Of a stretch of 48,034 nt of DNA, positions 4,896 through 32,585 are shown in pieces. The position numbers and the translations under genes were made by a program. The notes under the pieces were generated by a model, which was not told the DNA's origin, made no database searches, and saw nothing but the letters and a program-made list of their open reading frames with translations. The stretch lies in IMG/VR virus record IMGVR_UViG_3300045012_000037, positions 1 through 48,034 of that record; one strand, given 5' to 3'. Numbering within the stretch: the first letter of the stretch is position 1; every line of letters starts with the position of its first letter. This stretch comes from a virus.

Positions 4896-4914
4896 CGCAC
4901 GTCCTCCCATCAGG

Positions 4915-7114: not shown

Positions 7115-7130
7115 TGGTTTTCGTAGCGGA

Positions 7131-15190: not shown

Positions 15191-15669
15191 CAGAATGTCC
15201 TACTGCCAGGAGCACCGGGTATAGCGCCTCCAATTCCTTTGAGGATCGAAGATGCTGCGCTTACGTCGCCGGATAGCAATGCATCGCTTGACGCCGAGCG
15301 CAGATAAGCCGCGTCGCTTTCGTCCTGCTGTGATTGAGCCAAGATGCTATCGACTTGGATATTCTTGCGCTCAGTTCCAATCTGTTCGGTGTAATCACGC
15401 ACCGCCGCGCCGGTCGGCGACGTTGGATCAGTGTGCGACGCAGCGCGAATAGCGTCTAATTGTCCTAATGTTATGGCTTGATTGCGCGTTAACTGCGCAT
15501 TGGTTTGCGTAGCTTTCAATTCGCCATACTGTGCAGCACGGTCTAGTTCTGCGGCCTTGTATTGATCGGCCGCAGATGTGCCCTTAGCGCTTTCCAGCGA
15601 ACCAAAGGCTGACAAGCCCATCGAGGCTAGCGACAGAGCGGATGATGCACCTCCTGATGGAACGCCCAT
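15190..15669 (-). CDS. small internal virion protein (gp14-like by position)
   Basis: 159 aa, A/S/G/Q-rich. 1-nt start/stop overlaps with both neighbours. Confidence 0.5.
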   Translation of the reverse strand: MGVPSGGASSALSLASMGLSAFGSLESAKGTSAADQYKAAELDRAAQYGELKATQTNAQLTRNQAITLGQLDAIRAASHTDPTSPTGAAVRDYTEQIGTERKNIQVDSILAQSQQDESDAAYLRSASSDALLSGDVSAASSILKGIGGAIPGAPGSRTF

Positions 15670-18593
15670 TAGATTGTACTTTCTAATCCAGCCTCATGAA
15701 TGACGATCGGTCCCGGCGTATCTTTGATAATCGAGACGCGAGGATCGAATGAGCGACCCAGCGGGCGTGTCCGCTGGGCTTCCTCTCGCAAGGGCGGCGG
15801 CTGTGTCGGATCATCGCCCTGGTTCCAGGCTGTCCACCGTCGAAAGTTCATGATGGTTCCTAACACTGGCGATCTCGGCCGAAGCGGCCCTGAGAATAAG
15901 CGCGCCATCAGGAAGCCGGTTGAATTGGAAACATAGACGGCAAAACGCGCCACCCGGCGCGGAAACATGCGTTGATGCACGCTCTGGCCAGGTTGAGCAT
16001 CTGGCACGAACGGCTCGAGCGTCGCCGTCCAAGGCTGACCGGCAACCAGTGTCGAGAGCGTCAGGTTCTCGCCGTCGTTATTCTGCGGAATGATGAAGCC
16101 GTTGGCATCGACACTGTACGTGCCCATCATACGGTAGCCCTGATCCATCAGCGTCACGGTGCTGCTTGGGCCAGGAAATACATAGAGCGGACCTTTGCCG
16201 CCTGGCGGCGCAAACGGCGCCGGCAGACTGTTCACCAAAAGCGCACTATCGAGATATTGTGTAGCATCTAGCTTCTCGACAACGCTGGTTCCGACGAGTG
16301 TAGCAGTCGGGTTTATCGTGACAGCAGCGCCGGCCGTACCAAGAGCACCGAGCCATGTCAGTTGATCGCCGTTGGTATTGGGACCGGGAGCATTGGTAGA
16401 TGTCCAAAAATTAATGCCCCCTACGCCAGTAAACGGATTGGCGGTAGGCGATCCATTCCACAATCCACCATTAACCTGAAACCAGGCCAGCGCATTTGTT
16501 GCGTCGAACACCACGCCAATGACAGCCGATGAGGTTGAGCCAAGATTAATACCTGTATCAGTAGCAACCGCAAGCAGCACCCAAATTTCTCCGGTGCCGT
16601 CGATGGCAATTCCATTCTTTCCCGAGGTAAGATCAATGACTACTATGCCATCGCCGGCGCCGGTAGCGAGGTTAACCGGCGCAGAGAAGTTGGCATTAGT
16701 TGTAAACGTAAGAAAATAAATCCCGTTAGTGTGGCTAATGGTAGTGATGCTCCCCGCCAGCGGATATCCGGTTCTGGTTATAGTGAGATTTCCGTTTGAA
16801 TAGGCGGTAGTCGATGTGAGGATAGCCGGATTCCAGGTTCCTCCCCACGAAGTATTGATTTGGCCGCCGTAACCCGTTGTAAAAATAACGTCACCACCCT
16901 GCGCAGAAACCCACGTCGGCTTGCCGACGCCATTCCAGGGTAGCCAGCCGATCTTGGGCTTACCATCAACTCCAACATCAAGTAGGCCGTTGCGGACCGC
17001 ATATTTGCCGATAATACAGTTTCCATTGGCCAACAAAATGTAGGCATACATTTCCTCGAACTGCCCCGGCGCGCTCGGCGCCGCAATAGCAATCGCGGGC
17101 GAGGCCGTGAACAGATGCGAGTGAAATTCCGATACGTTGTCGACAATGTAGGGTCGATAATACGCGCCCGGTGCCTGTACCGCGCCGACCTGCGTGCCGC
17201 CGGCCTTCATGTAGAGAATCGATTGCTGCGCCGGCTGCGGCCGCACGTTCGGCATGCTGCCTTGTTCGCTCAATAGATTAAACGCGACAGAGCCGGGCAC
17301 TAGCGGATTGGCTGGCGTGATCGGAATGTAATAGACGGCGTTGTCGCAGAAAACAAACTCAGATGATTCCATGCCGGGCTGCACAAACAGCACTTGCGAT
17401 TTGCCGGGCGCGAGTTCAAAGATCGCATTGGCAGGCAGCGCGGCAACGTAGAAATCGAGGAATAGCCCGATTGCCGACCATCCAATGCCGGACGGCACGG
17501 ACGGAAAGTTGTTTAATATAAGCCGGTTTTGATCGAAGGACACCGATGTCGGATAGCCACGAAACAGGTTCATTACCTCGTCGTCCCACAACGACACCGC
17601 AAACGGGCCGCCGGGTGGATTGCTCGTAAGAGTGATCGCATAACTCGGCCCGACTGCAACCTCATTTGCCGCAAATGCGATAACGTGGCCTCCGTCGTTT
17701 TGAATCAATTGCACATCTATGCCGGTGCCCCCGCCGACAAGGGCGGTTACAATTCCTTCTGCGCCGCTCGTTTCGCCGATGATCACATCGCCGACGCTGA
17801 CGACGCCGGTTACATTGGCTGCCACGCCCAATGCTTGACCGGGATAAAGCGGCTCCTCGACTGTCGCGGTGCCATATTGCGACGGGCCGGCTGTTGGTGT
17901 GGTAAAATTAGATAACGTAACCGCGGTAATCAAAATCTGCCGATTGATGAATCGCATTCTTGTGCCGATCATGCCAGAGACCAGAACCGGCGATGAAAAC
18001 GTAATGTCGATGTTTCCCGACGTGGCGCTCGGCAGCATGGTGATGTTCTGCGGCGAGATGCGATAGAACAGCGTGCGCTTCTGGCCGCCTGGCGTGATAG
18101 TTTCGGCGAAGGTCGTCAGCGTCCACGTCGAAGTTTGCGATACGCCGTCCCAAGCCAAAACTTGCGGCACATTCACCGGGGCATCGTCGCCGTAGCAGAT
18201 ATAGATTGCACGTTGCGAGCCGGCGGCAACGACAAAGGTGACGTTCTTGACCGTTGCCGTCGTCCACGGAATATTGGTCGAGCCATCGCCTTTGAGCGTC
18301 GAGGTAAAAACCTGCGTGCCGGCGGCGTTGTAAACGCTCAATGAGCCGGCGCCAAATACCAGAAAGAAGATATTGCCCGGCGACATTAGGACTTCTTCGA
18401 CGCGGCCGGCTGCGGGGAATAGCGCGCTGCGGCCCGGTCGATTGGTTGCGGCACCACTATTGAGAATGCGCCAGTTGGAAGCCTGCCGCGCGCCGATCTT
18501 CATCAGCGGGTTTTCGTCGGCACGCTTCATCGCCACATCGAGCTCGCCGCCCGAAAAGTCTCGCTGTGCGCCGGTGATCTTCGCAATTGCCAT
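15669..18593 (-). CDS. tail tubular protein B (T7 gp12-like nozzle) with internal SPRY-like insertion
   Basis: N-terminus ...FSGGELD...GARQASNWRILNSGAATNRPG parallels T7 gp12 (KGGISQQP...QVNGW...GLQKRPP). 974 aa. The insertion contains YSNGNLTITR...ALAWFQVNGGLWNG. Confidence 0.75.
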   Translation of the reverse strand: MAIAKITGAQRDFSGGELDVAMKRADENPLMKIGARQASNWRILNSGAATNRPGRSALFPAAGRVEEVLMSPGNIFFLVFGAGSLSVYNAAGTQVFTSTLKGDGSTNIPWTTATVKNVTFVVAAGSQRAIYICYGDDAPVNVPQVLAWDGVSQTSTWTLTTFAETITPGGQKRTLFYRISPQNITMLPSATSGNIDITFSSPVLVSGMIGTRMRFINRQILITAVTLSNFTTPTAGPSQYGTATVEEPLYPGQALGVAANVTGVVSVGDVIIGETSGAEGIVTALVGGGTGIDVQLIQNDGGHVIAFAANEVAVGPSYAITLTSNPPGGPFAVSLWDDEVMNLFRGYPTSVSFDQNRLILNNFPSVPSGIGWSAIGLFLDFYVAALPANAIFELAPGKSQVLFVQPGMESSEFVFCDNAVYYIPITPANPLVPGSVAFNLLSEQGSMPNVRPQPAQQSILYMKAGGTQVGAVQAPGAYYRPYIVDNVSEFHSHLFTASPAIAIAAPSAPGQFEEMYAYILLANGNCIIGKYAVRNGLLDVGVDGKPKIGWLPWNGVGKPTWVSAQGGDVIFTTGYGGQINTSWGGTWNPAILTSTTAYSNGNLTITRTGYPLAGSITTISHTNGIYFLTFTTNANFSAPVNLATGAGDGIVVIDLTSGKNGIAIDGTGEIWVLLAVATDTGINLGSTSSAVIGVVFDATNALAWFQVNGGLWNGSPTANPFTGVGGINFWTSTNAPGPNTNGDQLTWLGALGTAGAAVTINPTATLVGTSVVEKLDATQYLDSALLVNSLPAPFAPPGGKGPLYVFPGPSSTVTLMDQGYRMMGTYSVDANGFIIPQNNDGENLTLSTLVAGQPWTATLEPFVPDAQPGQSVHQRMFPRRVARFAVYVSNSTGFLMARLFSGPLRPRSPVLGTIMNFRRWTAWNQGDDPTQPPPLREEAQRTRPLGRSFDPRVSIIKDTPGPIVIHEAGLESTI

Positions 18594-18602
18594 GGGCTAT
18601 GC

Positions 18603-19349
18603 CTAGCCCGGAGGACCGCCTGGGCCGCCCCAACCGCCGATACCTGTCCGCGGCCATGGGCGGCGTATCAGGCGGGACGCGCTGATGCGCGGGTTGAAGA
18701 ACTGCCGTTTGGGCAATTGCTGGTCGTAGCGCGTGCGGGCCATTTGCAGCATGCGCTCGCCGGCCATCCACATCTTGTCGCCTTCGGCCGGATCCTCGTG
18801 CAGCCCGCGATAGATGCCGGACATGGTAAAGGACTGCAGGGCAAGGAGCAGCGTCGGCGTGCCGTTGGTGGAGTCGCACAGCGCCCCGGAATTGGAGATG
18901 TATTTGAGCGTGATGGCGGCCGGGATGGTCGGCGGGACGGTCACGGGCGGCGGGGGCGGGCCGCCAAGCGCATTGACCACAATCACAGGGCCGGTCGGCG
19001 TCCCCATGATACGGTAGAGCGTGAACTGATTGGTCTGGACGTTCTGCGGGTCCGTCGTATCCTGATTGATCTTGAGCCAGATGATATGCACGCAGTCGGC
19101 CGGGATTGGATAGGCTGTGTCGTAATCGGTATCCTGCGGCGGGGTCGGGCTCGGCTGCAGCGTCACAACCAGGGCGGCATAGCCCCAGCCGTGGCTTTCC
19201 ATGGCGAAGCCGAGGCCGCGGTCATAGGCCGGCGAGGCTACGTTCCACTCGTCCGAACCGTCATCGGCCACGTTGACGAAGTTGTCCCCGGTTGCAGCCA
19301 GGGCAGAGTTAATCAGGCTCAGCTTGTCGAGTGGCGCCGGGAATGCCAT
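18603..19349 (-). CDS. tail tubular protein A (T7 gp11-like adaptor)
   Basis: Directly upstream of the gp12-like gene. INSALAATGDNFVNVA parallels T7 gp11 NEMLSAVGESPVNTL. Confidence 0.65.
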   Translation of the reverse strand: MAFPAPLDKLSLINSALAATGDNFVNVADDGSDEWNVASPAYDRGLGFAMESHGWGYAALVVTLQPSPTPPQDTDYDTAYPIPADCVHIIWLKINQDTTDPQNVQTNQFTLYRIMGTPTGPVIVVNALGGPPPPPVTVPPTIPAAITLKYISNSGALCDSTNGTPTLLLALQSFTMSGIYRGLHEDPAEGDKMWMAGERMLQMARTRYDQQLPKRQFFNPRISASRLIRRPWPRTGIGGWGGPGGPPG

Positions 19350-19376
19350 GCTCGACGGTGCGCTGGGGTCGCCAAA

Positions 19377-19393
19377 GCGCGCAACGCACGGTC
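19377..19393. promoter_or_regulatory. conserved late-arm motif copy 2 (GCGCGCAACGCACGGTC)
   Basis: In the 58-bp divergent spacer between tubular A (ATG 19349) and the methyltransferase moron (ATG 19408). Confidence 0.6.
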
Positions 19394-19407
19394 AGGAAAG
19401 CCGCCAA

Positions 19408-20064
19408 ATGCTCAGAAGCGCCCTCAAAGCGATGATTCCCGAGCCCGTTCTAACGAAATTACGGAACGTCAAACTAGCATTCACGCCACATGATAAAATC
19501 TATAATGAACACTATTTTGAAGAAGAAGTTATAGATACCTCAAGTATCGGAGCGCCCATTATGTCCAGCACGCTCTACGATTGGAGGCGCCCAAAAACGG
19601 TCATCGACATTGGATGCGGAAGCGGGGCACTACTCGCTGCATTTCGCGAATTAGGCTGCGAGGTAGAGGGCTTTGAATACGCCAACGTAGGACTAGCCTA
19701 TTGCCGAGGTCGGAAAATACCCACGGAGAAATTCGACATTTCTGTCGATAGATTTCCTCAACGTCGAGCTGACCTGGTTGTAAGTTTCGAGGTTGCCGAA
19801 CACTTGGCGCCACGATACGCAGACCGATACGTTGAGCTGCTTTGTTCGATGTCAGCGGATATTGCCATGTCTGCTGCAACGCCAGGACAAGGCGGTACTG
19901 GGCATATCAACGAGCAGCCGCATTCATATTGGATCGAGAAGTTCAGGCAACGCGGCTACTTTTTCCTAGCCGATATTTCGCAGAAATTATCCCAGGAATG
20001 GTGCGACGCTAACATTGCATCGTGGTACTGCAATAACGTGATGGTCTTTTCTCCGCGATCTTAA
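19408..20064 (+). CDS. class I SAM-dependent methyltransferase (non-DNA type), opposite-strand moron
   Basis: Motif I VIDIGCGSGALLAAFRELGCEVEGFEY, then VVSFEVAEHL and GHINEQPHSYWIEKFRQRGY. GGAAAG lies 7 nt before ATG 19408. The track start at 19273 would overlap the tubular A gene. AT-richer than its surroundings. Confidence 0.75.
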   Translation: MLRSALKAMIPEPVLTKLRNVKLAFTPHDKIYNEHYFEEEVIDTSSIGAPIMSSTLYDWRRPKTVIDIGCGSGALLAAFRELGCEVEGFEYANVGLAYCRGRKIPTEKFDISVDRFPQRRADLVVSFEVAEHLAPRYADRYVELLCSMSADIAMSAATPGQGGTGHINEQPHSYWIEKFRQRGYFFLADISQKLSQEWCDANIASWYCNNVMVFSPRS

Positions 20065-22907
20065 GGTATGACCTCGATAATAAGTTGGTCAGCGGCAATC
20101 GAGAGCGGCACGGAGCTTACGCTCGAATAGGTATTGATGGGCGTACTCTGCACTTGCGGATCATACACATTCACAGTGGTCTCGGTGGCAGCTAACGTCA
20201 GGGTAGCCGAAGTGGTCGGCGGCGTCACGTCAGAGCCATTCCACACGCTGGGTTCGTTCCAGACGCAAATGAAAAAATGGCCGTTGGACTTCTGCAGCAA
20301 AAGAGCCTGAGCGCCGAAATTGTTAAGCGCATTTGAGTGCGCCGGGAATGGAGAGATAGAATAAGTAAGCGAGCCGGGCGTGAACGCGCCACCAGTATCG
20401 GTCAGAATGGTCACTAGGTTCTTGATCGAGGTCGCGGCAGTCTTGGGATTATTATTATAATCAAACAGCCCGTAGTGGTGGAAAGATACAGTATCTGAGC
20501 TGTTGGCTTCATCGATCAGCTCGTACATATAAGTATATTTCGACCCGACAACGACATACATATCGAACAGGTCGTTCAATTGCAGCAGTGATTGCGCCAG
20601 TTGCGAAATGCCGCCTGTGGCGGGCACCGTGTAATAACCAGTCTCGGTCACTGCTTGCGGCAGACCGGCAATATCGCTTGCGGGGCCGGCGACCCAACCC
20701 GGCTGCTCGCCCTGATTGGGGTAGTAATGCTGATTGTTGTAGTCGGCAGTACCGGTGACACCGTATGATGGAAAGTCGGTGAAGTTAATCACCGGGACGC
20801 CGGTCAGATGCGAGTCACCATGGGTCTTGTTATAAATGTCCTGCTGCCAAGCGATAGCGGGCGCTGGATTGTTGTAGAAAGCTATGAATCGCGTCGCATC
20901 GCCGTTGCCAACGCCGGCCCCCTGGACGTTCGACGCCATCGTGACAGAGGTTGAGGCGATGGTGCTTAAGGTGGTGACCGGCGCGATCGGAAACACTGCG
21001 CCAGAGGTCAGCACCACGGCGTCAGCAATCCCCGCCTGCGCTGTGCCGACCGTGTTTGGCCCCAACGGAACCGAAAGGCTGCTTTGTGTGCTGGTAAACG
21101 GTTGAATCTCGACCAGATCGCCATCGTTGCCCCAGAGATTAGAGACAAAATCGCCTGTCACACCAGCAATGGTGCCAGCAACGGACACGAAGTTCTGAGC
21201 AGCCTGTGAACTATTGTTGCCCGTCTGCCGATAGCACCCGATGACAACCGTATTGGCGTGGGTCGTCGTAATCGTCAGCGGATCGGAAGTGCCGGTAACT
21301 GCACTGCCGTCGAAAGCGCCCGTGCTTCCGATCACACCGAAAGCATCAATGACCAGTGACGCGCTCGAAGTCTGCGAAACCGTAATGGTATCAGTTCGTG
21401 GATAGGAGCCACCGACTGGTCCCGTCGCGGTCCATTCCTCAAGATCGGTTGCTCCCGATGACGCGCTGGCCCGCTTTGCCCAACTTAAACTCTGGGTGTC
21501 CGTAATAGTAGTGACGGGTCCGCCGCTCGCCGCTGTGCAGATCAGCAATTTTTCGGCACTATTGTTGATCGTAAGTACAACATTCTGCGATGTAGCAGGA
21601 GAGGACGCCGCAGCGTGAGCATTGCCGGAATCAATGATAGTCGGTAGCAGCGTCAGGTCAGAGACTATTACCTGATTGACAAAGAATGGCGCATAAGACT
21701 GACAGCACGCATTGATCGCTTGCAACGCCGGAAGCGTCGAGGCGTAGTGCAGGGTAGCATTGCCAGAGGCAGTTGTGTTGTTCGTGACCGGCGAATTGAC
21801 GTAGCAGGACGGATTGTTGTTCAGCTCGTTGATGCCTTCGGCCGACGCCATCGCGCCGGGGTAAGTCGTAACAAAGGTGTCAATCAAGCCGTAAAGCGTA
21901 GTCAGTGTCGCAGCCGGACTTGGTGAGCAACCGCCAACGTGCTGTGATGCGATGTCAAAATCGAACTTATATCCCGCCGCCGCCAGGGTGTTGTAAACTG
22001 ACTGAGCTGGGTTGAGTGTGTCCAACCCATAGTCTCGGATCAGGCCGATCCCGAGATAGGCCATATCGGTCTGTATATTCGCTTCCGTGTAGATTGGATT
22101 GCCCTGAGTGATGTGCGTATTTGCACCCAGAGAAGCAATGAATGGCTGTGCCTTGACGGCGTTCGGATTGAATACATAAGGCTGATTGCCGCCGCCGTTG
22201 CCGGGGTTGGTCCAATTGGCAAACCCCGATGGAGCAACATCGGCATATGCCGTTGCGCCAAAATTTGCTGTTAATTGAACGCCCGAGATATTGTGAACGG
22301 AGGCCATGACAAAATATGGCCCGGCATTAAGTGCCGCAATCGACACGCCACACCCTGCATTAGCCGGCGTACAACCGCCCGTATTATTCCAGTTACCGCC
22401 ATGAACGCGAAACCATGCCAGCTTGTTAGTCAGGTCAACAGCCAGACCGGCCGTTTGACCGACCGTCATGGTCTGCTGCGCAGGGCCAACTTGAGCAGAA
22501 TTAAGAACGATACCACCACTATCGTACTCGCCAATACTGTTGTTTGAATCAACGCCCAATTCCTCGGCGGCATTGGCATTGCCGATACCAAAAATGACCT
22601 GACTAGTGCAACCGGAGACGCAACTGCCAATCGAGTTAAAGGTGAATTCGTTGTAGAACTGTCCTGTTAAGTTATTTGCCACCGAGCGGGTGACAAAATA
22701 TCCGGGGTTGCCGCTGCCTAGTGACGTTGAAGTAAGATTTCCGTTGGAAAGAACTGTCAGCGGGTCAGTTTGGCTAGGATCGAAGGTTGTTGTTACTGTG
22801 CCACTGGGTATTTTGCCGTGATCCCAGCCACACAGAAGGACCAGTGCAATGGAACCGATTGCGATATTTTTGCTTAACAAGCGGCCGGAGTGGAATGGAA
22901 ATATCAC
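20061..22907 (-). CDS. large exported/anchored protein: SPRY-like lectin domain plus possible TIM-barrel glycosidase region plus beta-rich C-terminus
   Basis: GTGA start/stop overlap at 22904-22907. N-terminus MIFPFHSGRLLSKNIAIGSIALVLLCG. SPRY pattern LSNGNLTSTS...GQFYNEFTF...LAVDLTNKLAWFRVHGGNWNN...LTANFGATAY. The later AEGINELNN is a clan GH-A-like NE motif (weak). Confidence 0.75.
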   Translation of the reverse strand: MIFPFHSGRLLSKNIAIGSIALVLLCGWDHGKIPSGTVTTTFDPSQTDPLTVLSNGNLTSTSLGSGNPGYFVTRSVANNLTGQFYNEFTFNSIGSCVSGCTSQVIFGIGNANAAEELGVDSNNSIGEYDSGGIVLNSAQVGPAQQTMTVGQTAGLAVDLTNKLAWFRVHGGNWNNTGGCTPANAGCGVSIAALNAGPYFVMASVHNISGVQLTANFGATAYADVAPSGFANWTNPGNGGGNQPYVFNPNAVKAQPFIASLGANTHITQGNPIYTEANIQTDMAYLGIGLIRDYGLDTLNPAQSVYNTLAAAGYKFDFDIASQHVGGCSPSPAATLTTLYGLIDTFVTTYPGAMASAEGINELNNNPSCYVNSPVTNNTTASGNATLHYASTLPALQAINACCQSYAPFFVNQVIVSDLTLLPTIIDSGNAHAAASSPATSQNVVLTINNSAEKLLICTAASGGPVTTITDTQSLSWAKRASASSGATDLEEWTATGPVGGSYPRTDTITVSQTSSASLVIDAFGVIGSTGAFDGSAVTGTSDPLTITTTHANTVVIGCYRQTGNNSSQAAQNFVSVAGTIAGVTGDFVSNLWGNDGDLVEIQPFTSTQSSLSVPLGPNTVGTAQAGIADAVVLTSGAVFPIAPVTTLSTIASTSVTMASNVQGAGVGNGDATRFIAFYNNPAPAIAWQQDIYNKTHGDSHLTGVPVINFTDFPSYGVTGTADYNNQHYYPNQGEQPGWVAGPASDIAGLPQAVTETGYYTVPATGGISQLAQSLLQLNDLFDMYVVVGSKYTYMYELIDEANSSDTVSFHHYGLFDYNNNPKTAATSIKNLVTILTDTGGAFTPGSLTYSISPFPAHSNALNNFGAQALLLQKSNGHFFICVWNEPSVWNGSDVTPPTTSATLTLAATETTVNVYDPQVQSTPINTYSSVSSVPLSIAADQLIIEVIP

Positions 22908-23779
22908 GTCCACACTCCGATGTAGTCCCATGATACGGGAATGCCGTCTCCTGGTGACATTATCAACATACTATGATTCGCGTCTGATGCCGCCCCATTG
23001 CTGCCAGTCGCATAGCTAAGAGCAGCGCCGGTCTGTTCCGCCCCATCGAGGTAACGCTTTATAACGCCATTCGTGGCGCCATTGGCCGGCAACCAGAGCG
23101 CTCCATACTTGTGAAAATTTGAATCTGAAATTCCGGTAATATTCCCGTTATTAAGCACCGAGGTCGTTGCCGAATTGAAAAAATGATCCTCCATTATTTG
23201 CGACTGACCTAGGTAATATTCATAACCATCGACCTCAACTAGAGAGGCGGCTCCGATTAAACTTTCGATCGCCAATAGCCACACGATAGGCCACGCAGAA
23301 GCGTCGGCATTGCTCGGCGTAAATGCCATACTCCATTCGACATACATCGGCGGCGTAAAGCCTTGTCCGACGTAAGACGATCCCGCGGCCTGGGCCGTCT
23401 GGACAAACAATTCGGATGTCGCACCAGTGCTATTGCTTAATGTAACTACCGAGTTGCTGACGCTTATGCTTGCTGGATTAGTGCTATGACCGGAAGTTGG
23501 AATTAGCGGCGCGGACCCCCCGTACGGATTCATTATATTCGGCCATGCATTATTCAGATACCAGTTGTAGCCCGGGTTGCCGGTCTTGCTTAGATCAAAG
23601 GTATTGCTCGTCAAAAAGTGGTCGAAAAACACGATTGTGGATAACCCGTTAGCTGCGGCAATGGCTGGGATCGGAAGAATGCCATGTGAAAATGCATTTG
23701 CTGGGCTCACACCGCTACGAGGCAACCACAATGCGGGAGCGGCCAAACTCGCACGAAGAAGATTTCTTCGAGTGATCAC
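22904..23779 (-). CDS. GH16-like (ConA-fold) glycoside hydrolase with twin-arginine signal peptide
   Basis: GTG start abutting the upstream stop. Signal MITRRNLLRASLAAPALWLPRSGVSPANA/F. WPIVWLL and EVDGYE match the GH16 WPAFWxL and ExDxxE signatures. Confidence 0.7.
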   Translation of the reverse strand: MITRRNLLRASLAAPALWLPRSGVSPANAFSHGILPIPAIAAANGLSTIVFFDHFLTSNTFDLSKTGNPGYNWYLNNAWPNIMNPYGGSAPLIPTSGHSTNPASISVSNSVVTLSNSTGATSELFVQTAQAAGSSYVGQGFTPPMYVEWSMAFTPSNADASAWPIVWLLAIESLIGAASLVEVDGYEYYLGQSQIMEDHFFNSATTSVLNNGNITGISDSNFHKYGALWLPANGATNGVIKRYLDGAEQTGAALSYATGSNGAASDANHSMLIMSPGDGIPVSWDYIGVWT

Positions 23780-24469
23780 TTACCAATTTCCAAATCCAGC
23801 GGGGGCTGCATAGGTATAAGAGGTTGCGCCAAAGTTTGCCGTTATGGAGGCGACGGCGTTGTGAATGCAGGCGGCGGCGAAATATGGGGCCGAGCCCGCA
23901 GAAGAAATTGATACGCCGCCGGCCCCCGTTGCCGGATTTGCTGTGCCGCTACCGTTCCAATTGCCGCCATTCTTTCTTATCCACACCAACCCTCCACCAA
24001 TATCGAGCGCCTGATCTATCACGTCGCCGTTGGTAAAAGTAGCATCAGTAAGGAGCGAGACGTTGTTGATGTATCCGTGTGAGTCGTCCCAATAGCCGAA
24101 ACCATTAATATCGACGCCGCCAAGAAACACATTAAGAGACTCTGATGAATTTACAAAACCAATGCCGTTGGAGTAAGAGGCAAAGCCGTTGCTGGTGTTA
24201 ATCAAAAAAGAAGCAAATAACTTTCCAGTAGAATGCGATGTGATAGAGCGAGAAAAACTATAGGTCCCAGAGCCGTTGGCTGTAATAGTTAAGTTTCCAC
24301 CAGACAGTGTAATGGTATTTCCAGTGTTGGACGGATCGAATGTCGTAGTACCGCCGCCGCCACTAGGCGCTACGATCGAACTGCCGACGCCGGTCTGCGT
24401 CAGGTCTTGTGCGTGCAGGACACACAGCAGCCCAACCAGAAACAGGCCAGCGGCAATCACCCGCTGCAT
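23780..24469 (-). CDS. secreted SPRY-like lectin-domain protein
   Basis: Signal MQRVIAAGLFLVGLLCVLHA/Q. LSGGNLTITANG...GKLFASFLIN...GLVWIRKNGGNWNGSGTANP...ITANFGATSYTYAAPAGFGNW, paralogous to the N-domain of 20061-22907. Confidence 0.75.
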   Translation of the reverse strand: MQRVIAAGLFLVGLLCVLHAQDLTQTGVGSSIVAPSGGGGTTTFDPSNTGNTITLSGGNLTITANGSGTYSFSRSITSHSTGKLFASFLINTSNGFASYSNGIGFVNSSESLNVFLGGVDINGFGYWDDSHGYINNVSLLTDATFTNGDVIDQALDIGGGLVWIRKNGGNWNGSGTANPATGAGGVSISSAGSAPYFAAACIHNAVASITANFGATSYTYAAPAGFGNW

Positions 24470-25302
24470 CAGTTATATCCGAATGTGCAGTTGATCGTGT
24501 TCGTTGCCGGTGCGGCCGCCCCCTTTGGCGTCGTGGTAGCCGCCGCACTCATCGCCGTGCCAAACTGCATGCCCTGCAGGTTCATCACAAAGCCGTTCGA
24601 CAGGCTTGGGGCGATCGGGATGACTTGCAGCGGCACCGTGGTTCCAACCGTGACCGACCCAAACGCCACGTTGAAAATCTGAATGTAGGTCCAGGCGGCA
24701 TTGTTGTTGTCGCATTGTGCGAAGCCGAGTTGACCGCCCGACGACTTGATCGCCTGTGCCGCATTGGTCAGAGCCGTTACCAACAGCGGCGTCCAGCCGC
24801 CTGTTGTGCCGAGTGGCGGCGGGCTGTTAATTGCGTTTGCCGCGGCCTTGGCGATCGCGGTCAACGTACAGGCTGTCGCAGTAGCCGGCAATGTGCAGGG
24901 CGAATCTGTTGTCGATCCCTCAACCGTGTTGGAGCCGTTGGCGATAGAGATTGCCGCTGTGTTTGTGATGAATACATTGGCGCCTGGAACGAGTACGGCC
25001 CCAGGTGACGTGCCGTAATTTGCCATCGCTCCGAGCGTGCCACCAGCCCATGTCGTATTCCAAAGCGCGGCAGAAGCCGGATCGACAAGTTGACCATGCG
25101 ACGTGTCGACACCGGCGCCGTTTGCGCCGGCCGAATAATCCCAGATCGTATTTTTGCCCAGGCAATTGCCGCTGCCGTCGACCACAGTGCCGATATTCTG
25201 AGATGTGCCGCCCGCATCCTTGCCAGTGATTGGCGAAGGACAAGCGGCAAATGCCGGCCAGCAAAGCAGCGTGAAGCCGAGCGCAAGGAGAATGCGCCTC
25301 AT
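24469..25302 (-). CDS. secreted or lipoprotein-type T/G/A/N-rich protein
   Basis: ATGA overlap with the upstream stop. MRRILLALGFTLLCWPAFAA/CPSP is a possible lipobox or an AxA site. Six Cys after the hydrophobic core. Confidence 0.7.
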   Translation of the reverse strand: MRRILLALGFTLLCWPAFAACPSPITGKDAGGTSQNIGTVVDGSGNCLGKNTIWDYSAGANGAGVDTSHGQLVDPASAALWNTTWAGGTLGAMANYGTSPGAVLVPGANVFITNTAAISIANGSNTVEGSTTDSPCTLPATATACTLTAIAKAAANAINSPPPLGTTGGWTPLLVTALTNAAQAIKSSGGQLGFAQCDNNNAAWTYIQIFNVAFGSVTVGTTVPLQVIPIAPSLSNGFVMNLQGMQFGTAMSAAATTTPKGAAAPATNTINCTFGYN

Positions 25303-25511
25303 GGAATTACTCCATTGATGAATTGCGGCATGTTGCAGCCGGTGGAGAGAGACAGATCGATTGCCCCTGCAGTGCATGGCGTGCCGACGATGACCGTCCC
25401 GCCGCCGCCGGACCCGCCGCCGATGCCCTGATTGCCGCCGATCGATTGTGCGAGTGCATGCGCTGTCCAGACTGACGCGGCAAACAATGCGAATGCGATG
25501 GCCCAGTTCAT
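25299..25511 (-). CDS. 70-aa secreted Gly-rich peptide precursor
   Basis: MNWAIAFALFAASVWTAHA/LAQSIGGNQGIGGGSGGGGTVIVGTPCTAGAIDLSLSTGCNMPQFINGVIP, with two Cys. Confidence 0.65.
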   Translation of the reverse strand: MNWAIAFALFAASVWTAHALAQSIGGNQGIGGGSGGGGTVIVGTPCTAGAIDLSLSTGCNMPQFINGVIP

Positions 25512-25512
25512 G

Positions 25513-26007
25513 TCAATTCTGATGCGTTTGTACAGTCGTTTCCAGATTGACCGCCGTGCAGGTTCCTGCCGTCATGGCAAATGCCACATAATCGCCGGCG
25601 GTGATCGCAGCCGAGTTGACCGTGCCGTCGACTACGGTTCCGGCTGCAGCAACGGTCACAGTTCCGATTGTGACGGGGCTCGATGCGCAAGTTGTCGACG
25701 TGCCGCACTCGAACACCGTTATGGTTGGATTGACCGAACACGTAAACGTGTTGGCGCTGCCCTCGATGTTGTCGACAGTCGTCGCCTTGCTGAATTTGTG
25801 AAACGCGCTTTTCGTGGCATTGATCGCCGTGATCGGACCGGTCTGAAAGCCGATGTGGTCGGTGGCGTTGTTGGCAATCGTTCCGCCCGAGCAGGTCAGA
25901 CCGGCGCCGCAGCCGAACAGGGCGCCATTGGAAATGCCGTCCGCAGCCAGCGGAGTGACCAAAGCCAGCAATGCGAGTGGGGCGATAATCCTACTGATAA
26001 TCTGCAT
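25513..26007 (-). CDS. secreted Cys-containing beta-rich protein
   Basis: Internal ATG 26007 of track ORF 25513-26160. MQIISRIIAPLALLALVTPLAA/DG. Six Cys in the mature part. Confidence 0.65.
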   Translation of the reverse strand: MQIISRIIAPLALLALVTPLAADGISNGALFGCGAGLTCSGGTIANNATDHIGFQTGPITAINATKSAFHKFSKATTVDNIEGSANTFTCSVNPTITVFECGTSTTCASSPVTIGTVTVAAAGTVVDGTVNSAAITAGDYVAFAMTAGTCTAVNLETTVQTHQN

Positions 26008-26368
26008 ACATCGTGTCCGAATTTGAGGCGCACGTCGCCTGGATGACATCGGACGGAACGTATGGGTAATAGCGCTGGTAGCTGCCGCCCGGAGACAACA
26101 AAATGGATGTTGCCTTTGTCGCGCTGCCAGATCCGATGAACAGCCAGCAATTGTCGCCATTGGTATTGTTGTTCTGGATAGTCAGCGAGCGCCTGATAGC
26201 CGGCGGCGCGGCAACAGCACTGAGTATGTTCTGATATGTGTTGCCGGTCGTGATCGTAACTGAGCCATTGATGGTTGGCGTATTGGTCTGCGCGTTCGCG
26301 ACAGGCGCAAAGAAAAGCGCTGCGGCGATAACCGCAGCGCGAGTTAGCCATGATCGATTCGCAATCAC
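25991..26368 (-). CDS. secreted beta-rich protein
   Basis: GTG 26368 preceded by GGTGGA and located after the stop of the upstream gene. (M)IANRSWLTRAAVIAAALFFAPVANA/QT. Two Cys. Confidence 0.6.
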   Translation of the reverse strand: MIANRSWLTRAAVIAAALFFAPVANAQTNTPTINGSVTITTGNTYQNILSAVAAPPAIRRSLTIQNNNTNGDNCWLFIGSGSATKATSILLSPGGSYQRYYPYVPSDVIQATCASNSDTMYADYQ

Positions 26369-26388
26369 AGCGGGAGGTTCCACCTGGC

Positions 26389-27006
26389 TTAGAAGTACGA
26401 GTAGATTATCGTGATATTGATCGAGCCCGAATTGCACGCGGTATGGCACGCGACAAGCACCTGATCCGCAATCGGCGCACCGCCATTGACTTGCAGCCGC
26501 GTCAGCGACGCATCCTTCACGACAACAGTTGCGTTGGCGCCGAGCGCGACCGCCGAGGCAAAAGTCGTGGCCGACGTGGCATCGCCGATGTCGACGCCGC
26601 CAGTGATGGCGTTGCCTGCCGTCTCGGCAAGCACAACGTTCTGAATGACCGTATTGGCCGGCAGCGTGATCGTCGATGTCGTTGACGTGGTTGACGCCAG
26701 GATGCCGGTCTGGATCAGCGTGAAGATATTTGGGCCGTAGAAGTAGCCTTGCGACAGGAAGTAGCCGACATCGCCGGAAGCGATAACCGCACAGCCATCA
26801 GCGTTGAGCTGATAGGCGGGCTGAGGCGTAGCCGTAGACGCCGAGTTGACAACACGCCTCGGTCCAGCGACGCCGGATGCTGGCTTAGGCGCGCACAAGA
26901 AGGCGTGAGCGGTCTGGGTCGACGCCGCCGCATAAGCGCCCTGCGGCACGATGAAGAAGGCGGCAATCGCTGCGGCGAGCAGGAATTGCGGAAGGCGAAA
27001 CTTCAT
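26389..27006 (-). CDS. secreted protein, possible small outer-membrane beta-barrel
   Basis: MKFRLPQFLLAAAIAAFFIVPQGAYA/A. Four Cys. C-terminus SINITIIYSYF has alternating hydrophobics and a terminal Phe (BAM beta-signal-like). Confidence 0.7.
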   Translation of the reverse strand: MKFRLPQFLLAAAIAAFFIVPQGAYAAASTQTAHAFLCAPKPASGVAGPRRVVNSASTATPQPAYQLNADGCAVIASGDVGYFLSQGYFYGPNIFTLIQTGILASTTSTTSTITLPANTVIQNVVLAETAGNAITGGVDIGDATSATTFASAVALGANATVVVKDASLTRLQVNGGAPIADQVLVACHTACNSGSINITIIYSYF

Positions 27007-27506
27007 GGTCTTGTCTCCTGTTCACCAAAGACGGGATCGGCACGCATCGCCGCGGCCAGATCGGCATTGGCCTCGATTTCGCGACGCATGTTTTCGGCGT
27101 GGCCGTGGCCTGGCGTGACGCCAACCGGCAGGCCGCGATTTTTCAGCTTCTCGTAACCGCGCGTGCGACTCGAGATCACGTAGCGTTTCGGGTCGCGGGT
27201 CAGCGCGTCATTGGCGTCGGCCGACCACATGAACAGTTCGATCGGGCCGCCTGAGCGCTTTTCAAACTCGGCATAGTCGACCTTGGCCTGCTTATGCGCC
27301 TTGAGCGCGGTCGCATAGTCCTCCATGGCCTCGCGAAATTCCAACATGGCCAGATCGTACTCCGGCTCACCTTCGCTGCCCTTTGGCGCCTTCGGACGCA
27401 TCGGCGGCTCGGGCTTCTTCGGCCCGAGATCCCACAGCCACACCTTCATCGCCGCATTGTCGGTGGCGTTGTTGCTGTTGATGCGCGTAAAGGCGAGATC
27501 GCTCAT
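27003..27506 (-). CDS. hypothetical protein (head-proximal)
   Basis: 167-aa ORF. ATGA overlaps on both sides. Charged, soluble-looking. Confidence 0.7.
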   Translation of the reverse strand: MSDLAFTRINSNNATDNAAMKVWLWDLGPKKPEPPMRPKAPKGSEGEPEYDLAMLEFREAMEDYATALKAHKQAKVDYAEFEKRSGGPIELFMWSADANDALTRDPKRYVISSRTRGYEKLKNRGLPVGVTPGHGHAENMRREIEANADLAAAMRADPVFGEQETRP

Positions 27507-27988
27507 GCCGCGTCTTTCTTGTCTTTCTCAACTTTTGCCGTGGCCCGCTTGGCGGCCATGACGCGCGCGATGGCGATCTTGCGGTCGGCGGCGAGTTGGA
27601 TGGCGGCGGCCGCCTTGGCGCGATCCTCTTGGATCTTCTTGACCTCGGCATCGACCGCGGACTCATCGAGATCCTGCGGTTCCATCGCATAGCGCTCGTC
27701 GGCGGCGATGGCGTGCGCCGCGTCGCTCGAGTGCATGGTCAGCGGGTCCGGCGCGATGTGGGTTTCGTGCCACAGTTTTGCATCGGCCTCGGCAGCATCA
27801 GAACGTACTTTCAACGCCTCGTCGGTTTCGCCGGGCTTCTTTTTCAGCGCCTTGCCGGTGCCGGGACCATGATCCCACACGATGACATTGCCGTTCGCGT
27901 CAAGGTCAGAAGCGATGACGGCGCGGCGGTGCTTCTTCTCGGCCTTGGTTTCGGTAGGACCGCCAAACAATGGATCAGCCATGGTCAT
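27503..27988 (-). CDS. hypothetical charged protein
   Basis: ATGA overlap with the upstream stop at 27985-27988. GAGGGA RBS. Product MTMADPLFGGPTETKAEKK... (track ORF 27503-28249 starts too far upstream). Confidence 0.65.
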   Translation of the reverse strand: MTMADPLFGGPTETKAEKKHRRAVIASDLDANGNVIVWDHGPGTGKALKKKPGETDEALKVRSDAAEADAKLWHETHIAPDPLTMHSSDAAHAIAADERYAMEPQDLDESAVDAEVKKIQEDRAKAAAAIQLAADRKIAIARVMAAKRATAKVEKDKKDAA

Positions 27989-28524: not shown

Positions 28525-29478
28525 TTAGGCGACGATCGGCGCGTTAGTCCACGAGTCCATGCGGCCGAGACAATACTTGTGCTCGTCCACCAAACCGATG
28601 TCCCAACTGATATGCGTGCGATAGGTCTTGCGGTCCTGCAGCAAGCCAACATCTTCCGGCGTCAGGTTGCGGACATAGATGCCGCGCAACATGCCCTCGC
28701 CCATGGTCAGGCCGTAGAGCGACGCGGTGACGGCCGAGCCGCCGCCGTTGCCGACCTCGTTGAATTGCAGCACCGGCTGCTGGTCGTCCTTCGGATAGCC
28801 CCAGAGCAAACGAAGCCCGGCATAGCTGATCTTCGGCATGCCGACCTCATCCCAGGTCTGCATCACGAAGCCACTCAAGGTCGTGGTGCGCGCCGCCTGA
28901 ATCCACAGCGGCAGCGAAATGAACGGCACGAAGATGTAGGTGGTACCGGACTTGCGCGAGATGTTGTTGAGGAACTGATCGAGATTGGCGAGCGAAAGCG
29001 CAGCGCCGCCAGATGTCGTCGAGTTGTGATAGAGCCGGCCGAACTTGCGGGCCCGGACTTGCAGGCCGTTGAACACGCGCGGATTGGTCGATTGGTCGCC
29101 CTTGACGAAAGTGTCGATCCACAGCCGCGCAAAGGCGGTGATGCCCATGCGTTCCTCGTAATTGCGCCGCTCCGAGCCGTGCCGATCCTGAATGGCGCGG
29201 TCCACGTCGATGTCGTGGTCGATGATGTAGGTCGCCTCGTCGAACGGCGTGATCGAGCCGTGGCCGCTTGAGGATGCTTCGTTGATGCCGCGGAACTGCG
29301 GCGTCGGCAGCACGGACTCGCGGAAGCCGACATATTTGGAACCGCGCAAGCCTTCAAAGGGCATGACCTCGAAAACGTCACTGTACTGCGTGAACATTTC
29401 GATGATGGTGCGTCGGATGTCCTCATTCGAGAACCCCTTGGCGTATTCGGTCAGGGTAATCAGATTGTTGACAGCCAT
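28525..29478 (-). CDS. major capsid protein
   Basis: 317 aa, follows the scaffold gene in portal-scaffold-capsid order. GAAGGG RBS. The long antisense ORF 28516-29271 is rejected. Confidence 0.7.
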   Translation of the reverse strand: MAVNNLITLTEYAKGFSNEDIRRTIIEMFTQYSDVFEVMPFEGLRGSKYVGFRESVLPTPQFRGINEASSSGHGSITPFDEATYIIDHDIDVDRAIQDRHGSERRNYEERMGITAFARLWIDTFVKGDQSTNPRVFNGLQVRARKFGRLYHNSTTSGGAALSLANLDQFLNNISRKSGTTYIFVPFISLPLWIQAARTTTLSGFVMQTWDEVGMPKISYAGLRLLWGYPKDDQQPVLQFNEVGNGGGSAVTASLYGLTMGEGMLRGIYVRNLTPEDVGLLQDRKTYRTHISWDIGLVDEHKYCLGRMDSWTNAPIVA

Positions 29479-30749: not shown

Positions 30750-30960
30750 TGTCAGCTATTCCCTTGCCCATGTGGGCCATCAGATCGGCCGCGAAACTGC
30801 GGCGACCCTCATTCGCGCGCAACGCACGTCCCGGCATGTTGGGCGTGGTGACCCCCAACCTGACCTTCTGCAAGTAGCGATAAAGAAGCTGGCCATCGGC
30901 GGTACGCGCGATGCGATCCATGACCTGCGTGATGTCGTCCGATGTGATTTCTTCGGTCAT
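30595..30960 (-). CDS. small protein downstream of portal
   Basis: 121-aa ORF. ATGA overlap with the portal stop. ...DGQLLYRYLQKV...RALRANEGRRSFAADLMAHMG looks protein-like. The 3-prime 155 nt overlap the scaffold ORF. Confidence 0.55.
   Translation of the reverse strand: MTEEITSDDITQVMDRIARTADGQLLYRYLQKVRLGVTTPNMPGRALRANEGRRSFAADLMAHMGKGIADSDRYAVTFAIAEPVDTRTHPRGARRRVTLDTAIAGWDTDANSGSGTSGSTN
30811..30831. promoter_or_regulatory. conserved late-arm motif copy 3 (ATTCGCGCGCAACGCACGTCC)
   Basis: 18-nt exact match to copy 1. 70 nt upstream of the scaffold GTG 30749, inside ORF 30595-30960. Confidence 0.55.
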
Positions 30961-32585
30961 GCTGCCGGCCCTGGAACTTGGTTGGTTGGCCCAGGCACCG
31001 GCCGGTCGCCCATCAGTTTCGACATCTGTTCGATCGCTGCCTGCACTTGCTGCGGGTTTCTGAATATAAGCAGCAATGAGCGCGCCTTTTTCGTCATCTC
31101 CTCCATCGTCTTGCCGCCATCGACCTTGACCTTAAATTCCTCGGGGAAGGTCTGCGCAAAATATGTTGCAAGCTGCATGGTCTTGACGATTTCCTGCTGC
31201 TCGGCGGCGCCCTGCGCGGGATTGCGCGGCAGCGTCGAGACGGCGCGGCCGTCCACTTGCAGCGGCTTGATCGATCCTGATTTCTCCAGCAGAAACTTGA
31301 ATCGCAAAAAATACTGCGCTGGACCTTCCTGCCAAAACGACATTCCCGGCGTGCCGATGCGGCGCTGTGCGCGGGCGAGTTCGTCCATCCATTGTGTTGC
31401 GGTCGGCGGTGTATCGCCGCTCTGCTCCGGATGATCGACGAAAGCCAGCTTGCGCAGATGTTTGATCTTTTCCTCGTACTGATAGTTGGCCGCTTCCGCC
31501 GGCGGCGGCGTGTAAATCGGCTTGACGGCGCCTTCGCTGCCGGGCCGGATCGGATAGGCCATGCCTTCCTCAACGCCCTGCTCGACTGCGGCAAAACTGT
31601 CGTCGGGGTAGGTGATCGGCGGCTTGATCGACAGCGCCGCATTCTCGATCCGCATCGATTCCAATTCGTCGATCTGACGCAGCGTCGGTAGGCCCTGGAT
31701 CAGCCAGCCGAGGCCGTGCGGCCAATCAGCGGTCGGATTGAACCGGGTCACGACCAGCGGACAGCAACCTTCGCCCTTGATCTCGTTGTCATGCACGACT
31801 TTGTTGCCGAGCATGACGACGGCCTGCCAAACCTCGTCGGACTTGTCGTCCCATTTGCGCCAGAATGCCCACACGATCTGCGTGCGATCGGACGGCTTGT
31901 TGTCCGCAACCTTTTTCTGGTCGGCGTCTAGTTTTTCCCAGATTTCCTCGCCGAGCAGTTCGCGGACATAATGGTTGCGCGTATAGCGCACGGCAGCGCG
32001 GTAATCGATGCCGCCATAGGGACCGAGATCGATTTCCAGTTCGCGCAGCGGAATGGCCGAGCAAACGACGGCGGAAGCCGGATGCGGTCGGTCGATCCAC
32101 ATACCGACCGTACCGATCGATAGGTCGGGATAATAGGCCTTTGGAATTTCTGAATAGAAGTTCGACGCCTTGATCGCGTTGAAGATGATGGCGTCATCTG
32201 TCCTGACCTGCTTCTCGACGCTTTTCCAGATTGGACCGTCCTTGCCGCCTGGCAGATCCATGCCGGGGCCGCGCTCACACCACAGCTCCGCTTCCGGCAG
32301 AAACGCATTGACGACTTCGGTTGTGTGATCGCCACAGATGATGAATGCCTGATCGGTGTTTAGTTCCGGCGCGTCGAGCATCCGCGACTGCGACGGCATC
32401 ACTGCCGAACTGATTTGCCGCTGGCGATTTGGCGCTGCGAAAAAATAGCACTCCTTGAAATCGAGCTCGACGTAAGATTTCCAGGTGCGCGCGGCAGCAA
32501 GCCGCGAGACCGCTTCCTGATCAAGCGTTTTGACTTCGCCGGTCGATGCAGCCTGCGTCTGCGCTGAATCCGGCGTCGCGGCCAT
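30957..32585 (-). CDS. portal (head-tail connector) protein
   Basis: 542 aa (T7 gp8-like size). Sits between terminase and scaffold/capsid. Confidence 0.75.
   Translation of the reverse strand: MAATPDSAQTQAASTGEVKTLDQEAVSRLAAARTWKSYVELDFKECYFFAAPNRQRQISSAVMPSQSRMLDAPELNTDQAFIICGDHTTEVVNAFLPEAELWCERGPGMDLPGGKDGPIWKSVEKQVRTDDAIIFNAIKASNFYSEIPKAYYPDLSIGTVGMWIDRPHPASAVVCSAIPLRELEIDLGPYGGIDYRAAVRYTRNHYVRELLGEEIWEKLDADQKKVADNKPSDRTQIVWAFWRKWDDKSDEVWQAVVMLGNKVVHDNEIKGEGCCPLVVTRFNPTADWPHGLGWLIQGLPTLRQIDELESMRIENAALSIKPPITYPDDSFAAVEQGVEEGMAYPIRPGSEGAVKPIYTPPPAEAANYQYEEKIKHLRKLAFVDHPEQSGDTPPTATQWMDELARAQRRIGTPGMSFWQEGPAQYFLRFKFLLEKSGSIKPLQVDGRAVSTLPRNPAQGAAEQQEIVKTMQLATYFAQTFPEEFKVKVDGGKTMEEMTKKARSLLLIFRNPQQVQAAIEQMSKLMGDRPVPGPTNQVPGPAA

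Follow-up and report, generated by a model that had tools for sequence, protein, structure and literature searches.

A GH16-like glycanase with a putative twin-arginine signal, encoded among signal-bearing proteins in the structural block of a phage genome

We analysed the whole of IMG/VR virus record IMGVR_UViG_3300045012_000037, a stretch of 48,034 nt referred to below as the window, with respect to a minus-strand gene at 22904–23779. The gene encodes a protein, here called the glycanase, in which a translated twin-arginine (RR) signal precedes a glycoside hydrolase family 16 (GH16) fold with a conserved catalytic triad; it lies in the phage structural block, and its neighbours bear signal peptides too. 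The explanation that we favour, with moderate confidence, is that the glycanase is exported by the twin-arginine translocation (Tat) system of the host and acts in the host envelope together with the products of its cassette neighbours. Tat routing, signal cleavage, periplasmic action, a class of substrate, timing and a benefit to the phage are the predicted parts of this explanation, and we treat each of them below. The features on which the argument turns are as follows.

22904..23779, minus strand: gene of the Tat-signal GH16-like glycanase, 291 aa, GTG start at 23779, TGA stop (open reading frame (ORF) list and homologues)
23693..23779, minus strand: predicted signal peptide, residues 1–29, with predicted cleavage at A29/F30 (TAT_signal match below cutoff, synonymous-codon conservation)
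23279..23293, minus strand: W-P-I-V-W, residues 163–167, corresponding to the substrate-cleft motif WPAFW of GH16 and aligning to WPAFW/WPAIW
23219..23236, minus strand: E-V-D-G-Y-E, residues 182–187, ExDxxE motif of the beta-bulge type, in a predicted strand spanning residues 179–189
Window 23720–23770, contig L010 3632–3682 and contig L003 5713–5763: 17-residue n/h-region RRNLLRASLAAPALWLP, from the alignment

A divergent GH16 fold with a conserved catalytic motif

A preliminary description of this DNA, made from its letters, had proposed kinship with GH16/ConA-type glucanases. We assessed this with relatives of the glycanase, of which a word-indexed search of 5.8 billion proteins retrieved only 13, all metagenomic or environmental, and a HMMER search of 1.84 billion cluster representatives retrieved 1,822 at E ≤ 1e-3 and 1,011 at E ≤ 1e-10. 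W163, E182, D184 and E187 are invariant in the alignment of the 13 homologues, and the three acidic residues are at least 90% conserved among 121 cluster representatives. When a profile of the 13 sequences was searched against the PDB, all 22 matches at E ≤ 10 were GH16 proteins, the best being ULam111 (5e-6), and the alignment placed the WPAFW and EIDIxE motifs of GH16 structures opposite WPIVW and EVDGYE. The profile of 121 sequences gave 11 PDB matches, again all GH16 and led by the Streptomyces beta-1,3(4)-glucanase SCLam (9e-10), and it aligned not only WPAFW and ExDxxE but also the C-terminal vDYVrVwq strand. The Pfam model of the family, PF00722, was matched by 7 of the 13 close members at E ≤ 1 and by 11 of the 121 relatives at E ≤ 0.01.

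Structure prediction led to the same family. The AlphaFold2 (AF2) model of the glycanase has a predicted local distance difference test score (pLDDT) of 76.8 and a predicted template modelling score (pTM) of 0.79, with residues 1–33 disordered and a long disordered loop at residues 80–96. Foldseek comparison of the model with the PDB returned GH16 proteins at every rank from 1 to 34 (E 4e-8 to 2e-5), at 12–17% identity and with target-normalised template modelling scores of 0.41–0.65. The preliminary description had made its proposal depend on the placement of the catalytic glutamates in a model, and there EVDGYE lies on the strand that aligns to the GH16 catalytic strand; its suggestion of GH16 kinship is thus borne out by both the profile searches and the AF2/Foldseek comparison. 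In a library of viral structures, the best matches were two chlorovirus proteins and assorted ConA-like domains of tail proteins. A non-catalytic lectin was rejected as the identity of the glycanase because the catalytic triad is conserved.

We conclude from the family profiles and the AF2 model that the glycanase has the predicted fold and catalytic machinery of GH16, and, from the sequence comparisons, that its membership is at the level of the superfamily or a distant clade. It is predicted to be a catalytically competent yet very divergent GH16-family beta-glycanase or transglycosylase.

The start codon and the signal peptide

The translated product of the ORF begins (M)ITRRNLLRASLAAPALWLPRSGVSPANA/FS. 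Since ORF 23780..24469, next upstream, ends in a TAA that lies in frame immediately 5′ of the GTG at 23779, this GTG is the earliest possible start. The public JGI gene call (P0001) begins at V24, yielding 268 aa without the RR motif; the region that it drops corresponds to window positions 23711–23779. Over the 22 codons from T3, the window and contig L010 have 3 identical codons, 14 that differ only synonymously and 5 replacements, and the 17 residues RRNLLRASLAAPALWLP are the same in both, with L003 differing only by a K for an R. We reasoned that a peptide that is kept while its codons change synonymously is under purifying selection, and therefore that the RR peptide is translated. Consistent with this, the homologues P0004, P0005 and P0010–P0013 start upstream of a conserved [ST]-R-R-x-[LF]-[LI], and the L010 homologue has a GGAGG Shine-Dalgarno sequence four bases 5′ of its RR-containing start. 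P0003, on contig L007, has a public call that is too short and can be extended to a GTG-LTRRSLL start overlapping the upstream stop.

These comparisons leave next to no credence for a cytoplasmic protein translated from the downstream GTG at V24 with the RR motif untranslated: that start was chosen by the JGI call, and a strong Shine-Dalgarno sequence is found at neither candidate start, but the synonymous changes extend upstream of and around V24, the homologues have an ATG or GTG before the RR motif, and a first GTG that abuts the upstream stop fits translational coupling. We conclude from these sequence comparisons that the true start is upstream of the RR motif and that the JGI call is wrong. 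The GTG start, RR N-terminus, AxA/FS site, WPIVW and EVDGYE given in the preliminary description all read as stated there, and the start downstream of the RR motif that it named as a possible refutation is contradicted by the GTG directly after a stop, the synonymous codons and the L010 Shine-Dalgarno sequence.

The signal has the parts expected of the Tat type: an n-region T-R-R-N-L-L-R (nt 23753–23773), an h-region ASLAAPALWLP, and a c-region RSGVSPANA that contains a basic residue, R21, and an A-x-A site before a conserved mature N-terminus. The Tat-type signal proposed earlier is present, with RR motif, h-region, basic c-region and AxA site, and RR signals are conserved in most phage homologues. 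Tat signals are less hydrophobic than Sec signals, those of the general secretory pathway, and a difference in this direction was found when, within the same set of phage cassettes, 8 RR signals were compared with 24 non-RR signals (mean hydrophobicity 1.78 versus 2.64; Mann-Whitney p = 7e-5); the maximum Kyte-Doolittle value of the glycanase h-region in an 11-residue window is 1.41.

RR signals occur in 8 of 12 close homologues, counting P0003 with its corrected start, whereas P0007 and P0008 have Sec-like signals instead. We examined the 160 best family representatives, among which 122 are short proteins; 52 of these have Tat-like and 25 Sec-like signals. Many signals in the wider family are textbook Tat signals unrelated to that of the window (…TRREFIKYAGAALGAAALF…), with Sec signals also found at the same position, and 7 of the 121 relatives match the Pfam TAT_signal model PF10518 at E ≤ 0.01. 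Acidobacteriaceae homologues carry the NCBI name ‘twin-arginine translocation signal domain-containing protein’. That members of one family may have a Tat signal, a Sec signal or none argues that the N-terminus serves export rather than a structural role. The sequence features together point to Tat rather than Sec routing of the glycanase, with putative cleavage at A29/F30 and a probable site of action in the periplasm. Two other kinds of N-terminus were considered and rejected, namely an anchor like that of signal-arrest-release (SAR) endolysins, because GH16 enzymes are not muralytic and only 11 residues make up the h-region, and a lipoprotein signal, because the signal lacks Cys.

Directly after the predicted cleavage site, 17 of the 160 representatives (P0003–P0155) have a [WFL]-[ST]-H-G motif, where 2.3 would be expected; residues 30–33 of the window protein, FSHG, are an instance. 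Strings of the form W.HG or THG also follow the signals of an unrelated 956-aa protein of the window (‘CGWDHG’), of P0276 and of an esterase on L007.

A signal-bearing cassette in a temperate phage genome

The glycanase gene is one of seven consecutive minus-strand genes, from 27006 down to 20061, that lie between the head and tail modules and all encode signal peptides, six of Sec type with AxA sites and one of Tat type. The other six genes, and those that follow at the downstream end, are as follows.

26389..27006, minus strand: 205-aa signal-bearing protein, first of the seven, 69–70% identical to its L010 homologue
25991..26350, minus strand: signal-bearing protein of ~119 aa (…TRAAVIAAALFFAPVANA/QT), 68% identical to L010_749_1108
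25299..25511, minus strand: Gly-rich protein of 70 aa, signal of Sec type; L010 has a similar gene of 71 aa
24469..25302, minus strand: 277-aa protein, counted from M26; signal (MRRILLALGFTLLCWPAFAA/CPS) of Sec type or lipoprotein-like
23780..24469, minus strand: 229-aa SPRY/ConA-like protein (phrog_10080), Sec-type signal MQRVIAAGLFLVGLLCVLHA/QD; the gene ends immediately before the glycanase start
20061..22907, minus strand: 948-aa protein (956 aa from an ATG at 22931) with a signal or anchor, a SPRY domain and a GH-A-like glycosidase
19273..20064, plus strand: methyltransferase dependent on S-adenosylmethionine (Methyltransf_23, E 1.7e-12, above cutoff)
18603..19349, minus strand: tail tubular protein A (phrog_394), the downstream boundary of the cassette

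The GTG start of the 948-aa gene, at 22907 and preceded by GGAG, overlaps the TGA stop of the glycanase gene as GTGA. Given this junction and the TAA-GTG junction at the other end, the SPRY gene, the glycanase gene and the 948-aa gene are probably translationally coupled. In the 277-aa protein, M26 is preceded by a TGGAG Shine-Dalgarno sequence and the C-terminus is similar to L007_2597_3754. The 229-aa SPRY-like protein has a paralogue within the 956-aa protein, namely the N-terminal domain, a SPRY domain that PF00622 matches in relatives. The 956-aa protein also has a region with a clan GH-A signature (invariant EG.NE.N..P, H.Y and TE.G), with the glycosidase split by an insertion of ~300 aa. 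In the PDB it matched nothing but PslG, which hydrolyses the exopolysaccharide Psl, and this match is marginal (E 0.011); its AF2 model has a pLDDT of 35.8; these motifs and the PslG match make it a candidate glycosidase. Flanked by the glycosidase gene and the gene of tail tubular protein A, the methyltransferase ORF runs opposite to both, as a moron would. A scan for promoters and terminators found nothing convincing that delimits the cassette, and promoter-like sites were fewer than in shuffled sequences. A GC-rich minus-strand hairpin at 26317–26340, followed by a run of T, was rejected as a terminator because it lies inside the signal-coding part of a gene conserved in L010.

Similar arrangements recur elsewhere. 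Runs of signal-bearing genes were found in five other phage contigs (L001, L003, L007, L010 and L014), and most of the homologue contexts that we retrieved are phage-like. On L010 and L011, the glycanase homologue follows five signal-bearing genes and directly precedes a tail tubular protein A homologue (58–60% identity); on L007 and L008, a SPRY-like gene is again immediately upstream of the GH16-like gene. The L003 homologue comes after a second ConA-like protein with a Tat signal (4774–5682; MNRRRFLK…; weak ArabFuran-catal and Laminin_G_3 matches) and abuts an Acyl_transf_3 gene (6735–7838), and that of L001 lies between a signal-bearing 1,063-aa Peptidase_S74 protein and a lysis-like cluster. 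Wzy_C genes are found near the homologues on L014 (5955–7049; contig with RusA, GapR, YqaJ and DnaB) and L016 (6–1157; contig with terminase, P22 portal and capsid).

At 50% identity the family comprises ~1,800 clusters, mostly unannotated, and it occurs in bacterial chromosomes as well as phages. P0164 lies between housekeeping genes on a 2.17-Mb Acidobacteriaceae-type contig and P0117 among metabolic genes on a 332-kb contig, and chromosomal bacterial members carry Tat signals too. Neither megablast with the region nor tblastn with the glycanase found a match among 50,697 GenBank phage records, and pattern scans for relatives found none in IMG/VR or GTDB genomes and only two short loci in JGI metagenome contigs. 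As just 11 of 121 relatives reach PF00722 by themselves, the GH16-like clade appears distant, and it largely escapes the current models of Pfam, PHROG and NCBIfam. The size and cellular reach of the family, and the run of seven signal-bearing genes, are points beyond the preliminary description.

Bases 1–127 of the window are repeated exactly at 47908–48034, and from this overlap of the ends we infer that the window is a complete, circularly assembled phage genome of ~47.9 kb. Its other recognisable genes are listed here.

33345–34850, minus strand: terminase, upstream of the glycanase gene
30957–32585, minus strand: portal, upstream of the glycanase gene
28525–29478, minus strand: major head protein, upstream of the glycanase gene
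15669–18593, minus strand: tail tubular protein B, 974 aa, downstream of the glycanase gene
7131–9002, minus strand: 623-aa protein in the tail-fibre position (weak phrog_32409 match), with a Sec signal
4915–5736, minus strand: protein of 273 aa resembling an outer-membrane protein (OMP), with a Sec signal
46529–47902: integrase (phrog_1, weak)
44287–45183: DNA methyltransferase (phrog_56)
40478–40960: MTES_1575/DUF559-type endonuclease-like protein

Also on the tail side are genes for an internal protein of 1,329 aa and for an internal virion protein that contains a transglycosylase domain; no tRNA genes were found in the window. The integrase, DNA methyltransferase and endonuclease-like gene indicate a temperate lifestyle with DNA-modification functions. 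By its gene content, the window is a temperate podophage genome, which we regard as soil-type, and the phage origin assumed earlier is secured by the terminase, portal, capsid, tail tubular proteins A and B and integrase on a circular genome. The glycanase gene has the same orientation as the head genes upstream and the tail genes downstream; the label ‘late gene’ is a putative one, taken from its position, strand and translational coupling.

The nearest sequenced phages, at 33–48% identity, are the ‘Microcystis’ phage Mwe-JY08, a Pelagibacter phage and Caulobacter/Brevundimonas phages. Mwe-JY08 (PP395640.1; L004) has an unannotated tail tubular protein B homologue at 26190–27776, a region annotated only with a tRNA-Gly, and also encodes a DUF2312 protein. 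In the tail tubular protein B of the window, 46 residues (16395–16532) are 52% identical to SPRY-like cassette proteins of L008 and L009, a stretch that could represent a lectin inserted into the nozzle protein. Metagenomic homologues of the OMP-like protein number 95, and one of them bears the name ‘opacity protein-like surface antigen’; a host search with this protein found no match among plasmids or GTDB genomes. The Bradyrhizobium-like host and the cyclic-glucan substrate raised in the preliminary description are speculative.

Proposed role, alternatives and known systems

The Tat-type signal of the glycanase and its place in a run of seven signal-bearing genes suggest that glycan-binding and glycan-cutting proteins are sent to the host envelope rather than carried on the virion. 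In the mechanism that we propose, the glycanase would be translated from the GTG at 23779, coupled to the upstream SPRY-lectin gene and the downstream gene for the SPRY and PslG-like protein, and would fold in the cytoplasm. It would then cross the inner membrane by way of the host Tat system and be cut after A-N-A by signal peptidase. Once in the periplasm or envelope, the glycanase and its six Sec-exported neighbours would act jointly on host envelope polysaccharide, the candidate targets being exopolysaccharide (EPS) or capsule, O-antigen or periplasmic glucan, cut from inside; the model here, by analogy, is provided by the periplasmic hydrolases of host EPS operons (PslG, ExoK and WceF). 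The likely benefit would be destruction of receptor or matrix glycans, leading to release of progeny, or a block to superinfection in a lysogen.

Several observations weigh against this explanation. As to the enzyme, a Pfam search with the glycanase sequence alone did not reach PF00722 even at E ≤ 1, the sole match being the sub-threshold TAT_signal, and the sequence alone had no usable match in PHROGs, NCBIfam or the PDB. At less than 20% identity to characterised GH16 enzymes, its substrate cannot be inferred. As to the signal, the h-region is short (11 uncharged residues), PF10518 scored 15.6 bits against a cutoff of 22.7 bits (E 0.016), and NCBIfam models, including TIGR01409, gave no match to the glycanase at E ≤ 1. 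The homologue P0002 has no signal at all, with an in-frame stop immediately before its ATG. The n- and h-regions of the signal are also more conserved than the enzyme, the mature enzymes being 32–38% identical, which is atypical for a plain signal. Finally, some long members of the family have the GH16-like domain fused, as their C-terminal part, to phrog_5939 ‘tail protein’ or Hoc-like Ig modules, and we reasoned from the fusion to ‘tail protein’ modules that the same domain can be virion-borne.

The hyper-conserved signal, the signals on tail-fibre-like proteins and the lack of an obvious cytoplasmic receptor-binding protein are unexplained by the mechanism above, and these signal features leave room for a more far-reaching possibility, which we consider doubtful. 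It supposes that this podophage lineage sends its whole receptor-binding and depolymerase repertoire to the envelope by the host Sec and Tat systems rather than through cytoplasmic virion assembly, with a dedicated factor recognising the n/h-region. The repertoire would consist of the SPRY lectin-like proteins and two glycosidases and, in relatives, of proteins with tail-fibre or Peptidase_S74 modules. Such a phage ‘secretome’ would dismantle or rewrite host surface glycans from within before lysis, or its products would join virions only after lysis.

Expression from the prophage would involve the same biochemistry as envelope action during infection, at another time. The cassette would be transcribed in the lysogen as well as late in the lytic cycle, and the glycanase would trim or remodel O-antigen or EPS, resulting in superinfection exclusion or serotype conversion. 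Genes for O-acetyltransferases (Acyl_transf_3) and Wzy_C are classic seroconversion genes, and homologues lie beside the former on L003 and near the latter on L014 and L016; moreover, the phage is temperate by its integrase, and a methyltransferase moron stands on the opposite strand at the end of the cassette. However, the glycanase gene is co-oriented and apparently translationally coupled inside a head-to-tail structural block, and the cassette is not set off by a convincing promoter or terminator, shuffled sequences having more promoter-like sites and the single strong hairpin being intragenic. We therefore regard lysogenic conversion as unlikely.

Alternatively, the glycanase could be a virion-associated depolymerase whose N-terminal 20–30 residues are a tail-docking peptide, as in branched receptor-binding-protein systems. 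Conservation of the N-terminal 17 residues above that of the catalytic domain would fit such a peptide, as would the position of the gene just upstream of the tail genes (and of its L010/L011 counterpart directly before tail tubular protein A), the relatives fused to phrog_5939 modules, and the signal-less P0002, which lies near a tail-fibre-like gene. A docking peptide is nevertheless hard to reconcile with the unrelated canonical Tat and Sec signals that occupy the same position across the wider family, with the Tat signals of chromosomal bacterial members, with the canonical Sec signals and AxA sites of all six neighbours, or with the lower hydrophobicity of the RR signals, as expected of Tat. 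We judge it improbable.

Even less probable is an auxiliary metabolic gene (AMG) whose product degrades environmental beta-glucans from plants, fungi or algae to feed the infected cell. GH16 beta-glycanases are found among the viral auxiliary carbohydrate-active enzymes (CAZymes) of soil viromes (PMC6460857), cellular members of the family occur among metabolic genes in Acidobacteriaceae-type genomes, and all homologues come from environmental metagenomes. However, Tat export in a diderm host stops at the periplasm, the gene is unaccompanied by uptake or utilisation genes, and it is embedded with genes for SPRY lectin-like and PslG-like proteins, with surface-glycan genes nearby in related phages. 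The periplasmic endpoint and the envelope-glycan neighbours favour a target in the host envelope over an environmental one.

Phage polysaccharide depolymerases are usually viewed as virion tailspikes or as soluble enzymes freed at lysis. If Tat export to the host envelope is correct, the export of folded glycanases and lectin-like proteins would be a new phage route to manipulation of the host surface, allowing destruction of receptors from inside, release from EPS matrices, and serotype conversion by hydrolysis rather than addition. Because the clade is shared by soil-type bacteria and phages and is mostly unmodelled, surveys of viral ‘CAZyme AMGs’ would miss or misread it, and exported phage proteins of this type are probably under-counted, since automatic gene calling strips the signal peptide. 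In the literature searched, we found no described precedent for phage-encoded Tat-exported glycanases or signal-bearing receptor-binding proteins, nor for a seven-gene ‘secretome’ cassette.

Parts of the proposal have counterparts in known systems. With the GH16 beta-bulge ExDxxE enzymes, namely laminarinases, beta-1,3(4)-glucanases, agarases and porphyranases (SCLam, 6xof; ULam111, 5wut; Pyrococcus furiosus, 2vy0), the glycanase shares the beta-jelly-roll, the W-P-x-x-W cleft, E-x-D-x-x-E on one strand and the C-terminal xDYVxVW strand; it differs from them in being only 12–17% identical, invisible to PF00722 and placed in a separate, largely unannotated clade. Among viral proteins, the chlorovirus GH16-like proteins (BFVD M1HLJ2 and M1HYC6) are the best structural matches (E ~3e-8, with a root-mean-square deviation of ~15 Å), but they belong to a virus of eukaryotic algae.

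ExoK, which acts on Sinorhizobium succinoglycan, is a GH16 enzyme. The EPS-trimming hydrolases WceF, PslG (GH39; Pseudomonas Psl) and ExoK are exported, as the glycanase is predicted to be, and by analogy likewise act on the cell's own envelope polysaccharide, whereas the glycanase is encoded in a phage structural block rather than an EPS biosynthesis operon; it has no sequence relation to WceF and shares only the GH16 family with ExoK. WceF, an EPS hydrolase of Pantoea that acts on stewartan and influences the length of its chains, bears a Tat signal (PMC7949094).

The Streptomyces coelicolor agarase DagA is classified in GH16 by CAZy. DagA is a cofactor-less, secreted, Tat-dependent glycanase but, unlike the phage glycanase, it is cellular and actinobacterial and is secreted to the medium. 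Agarase has served as a model Tat-dependent protein in Streptomyces (PMC4511581).

Tailspike and tail-fibre depolymerases of phages are also phage-encoded polysaccharide-degrading enzymes found beside tail genes, whereas the glycanase is a small stand-alone jelly roll with an export signal rather than a trimeric beta-helix. What appears to be new is an enzyme that diverges strongly from the rest of its known fold family, together with its predicted Tat-signal routing from a phage structural block.

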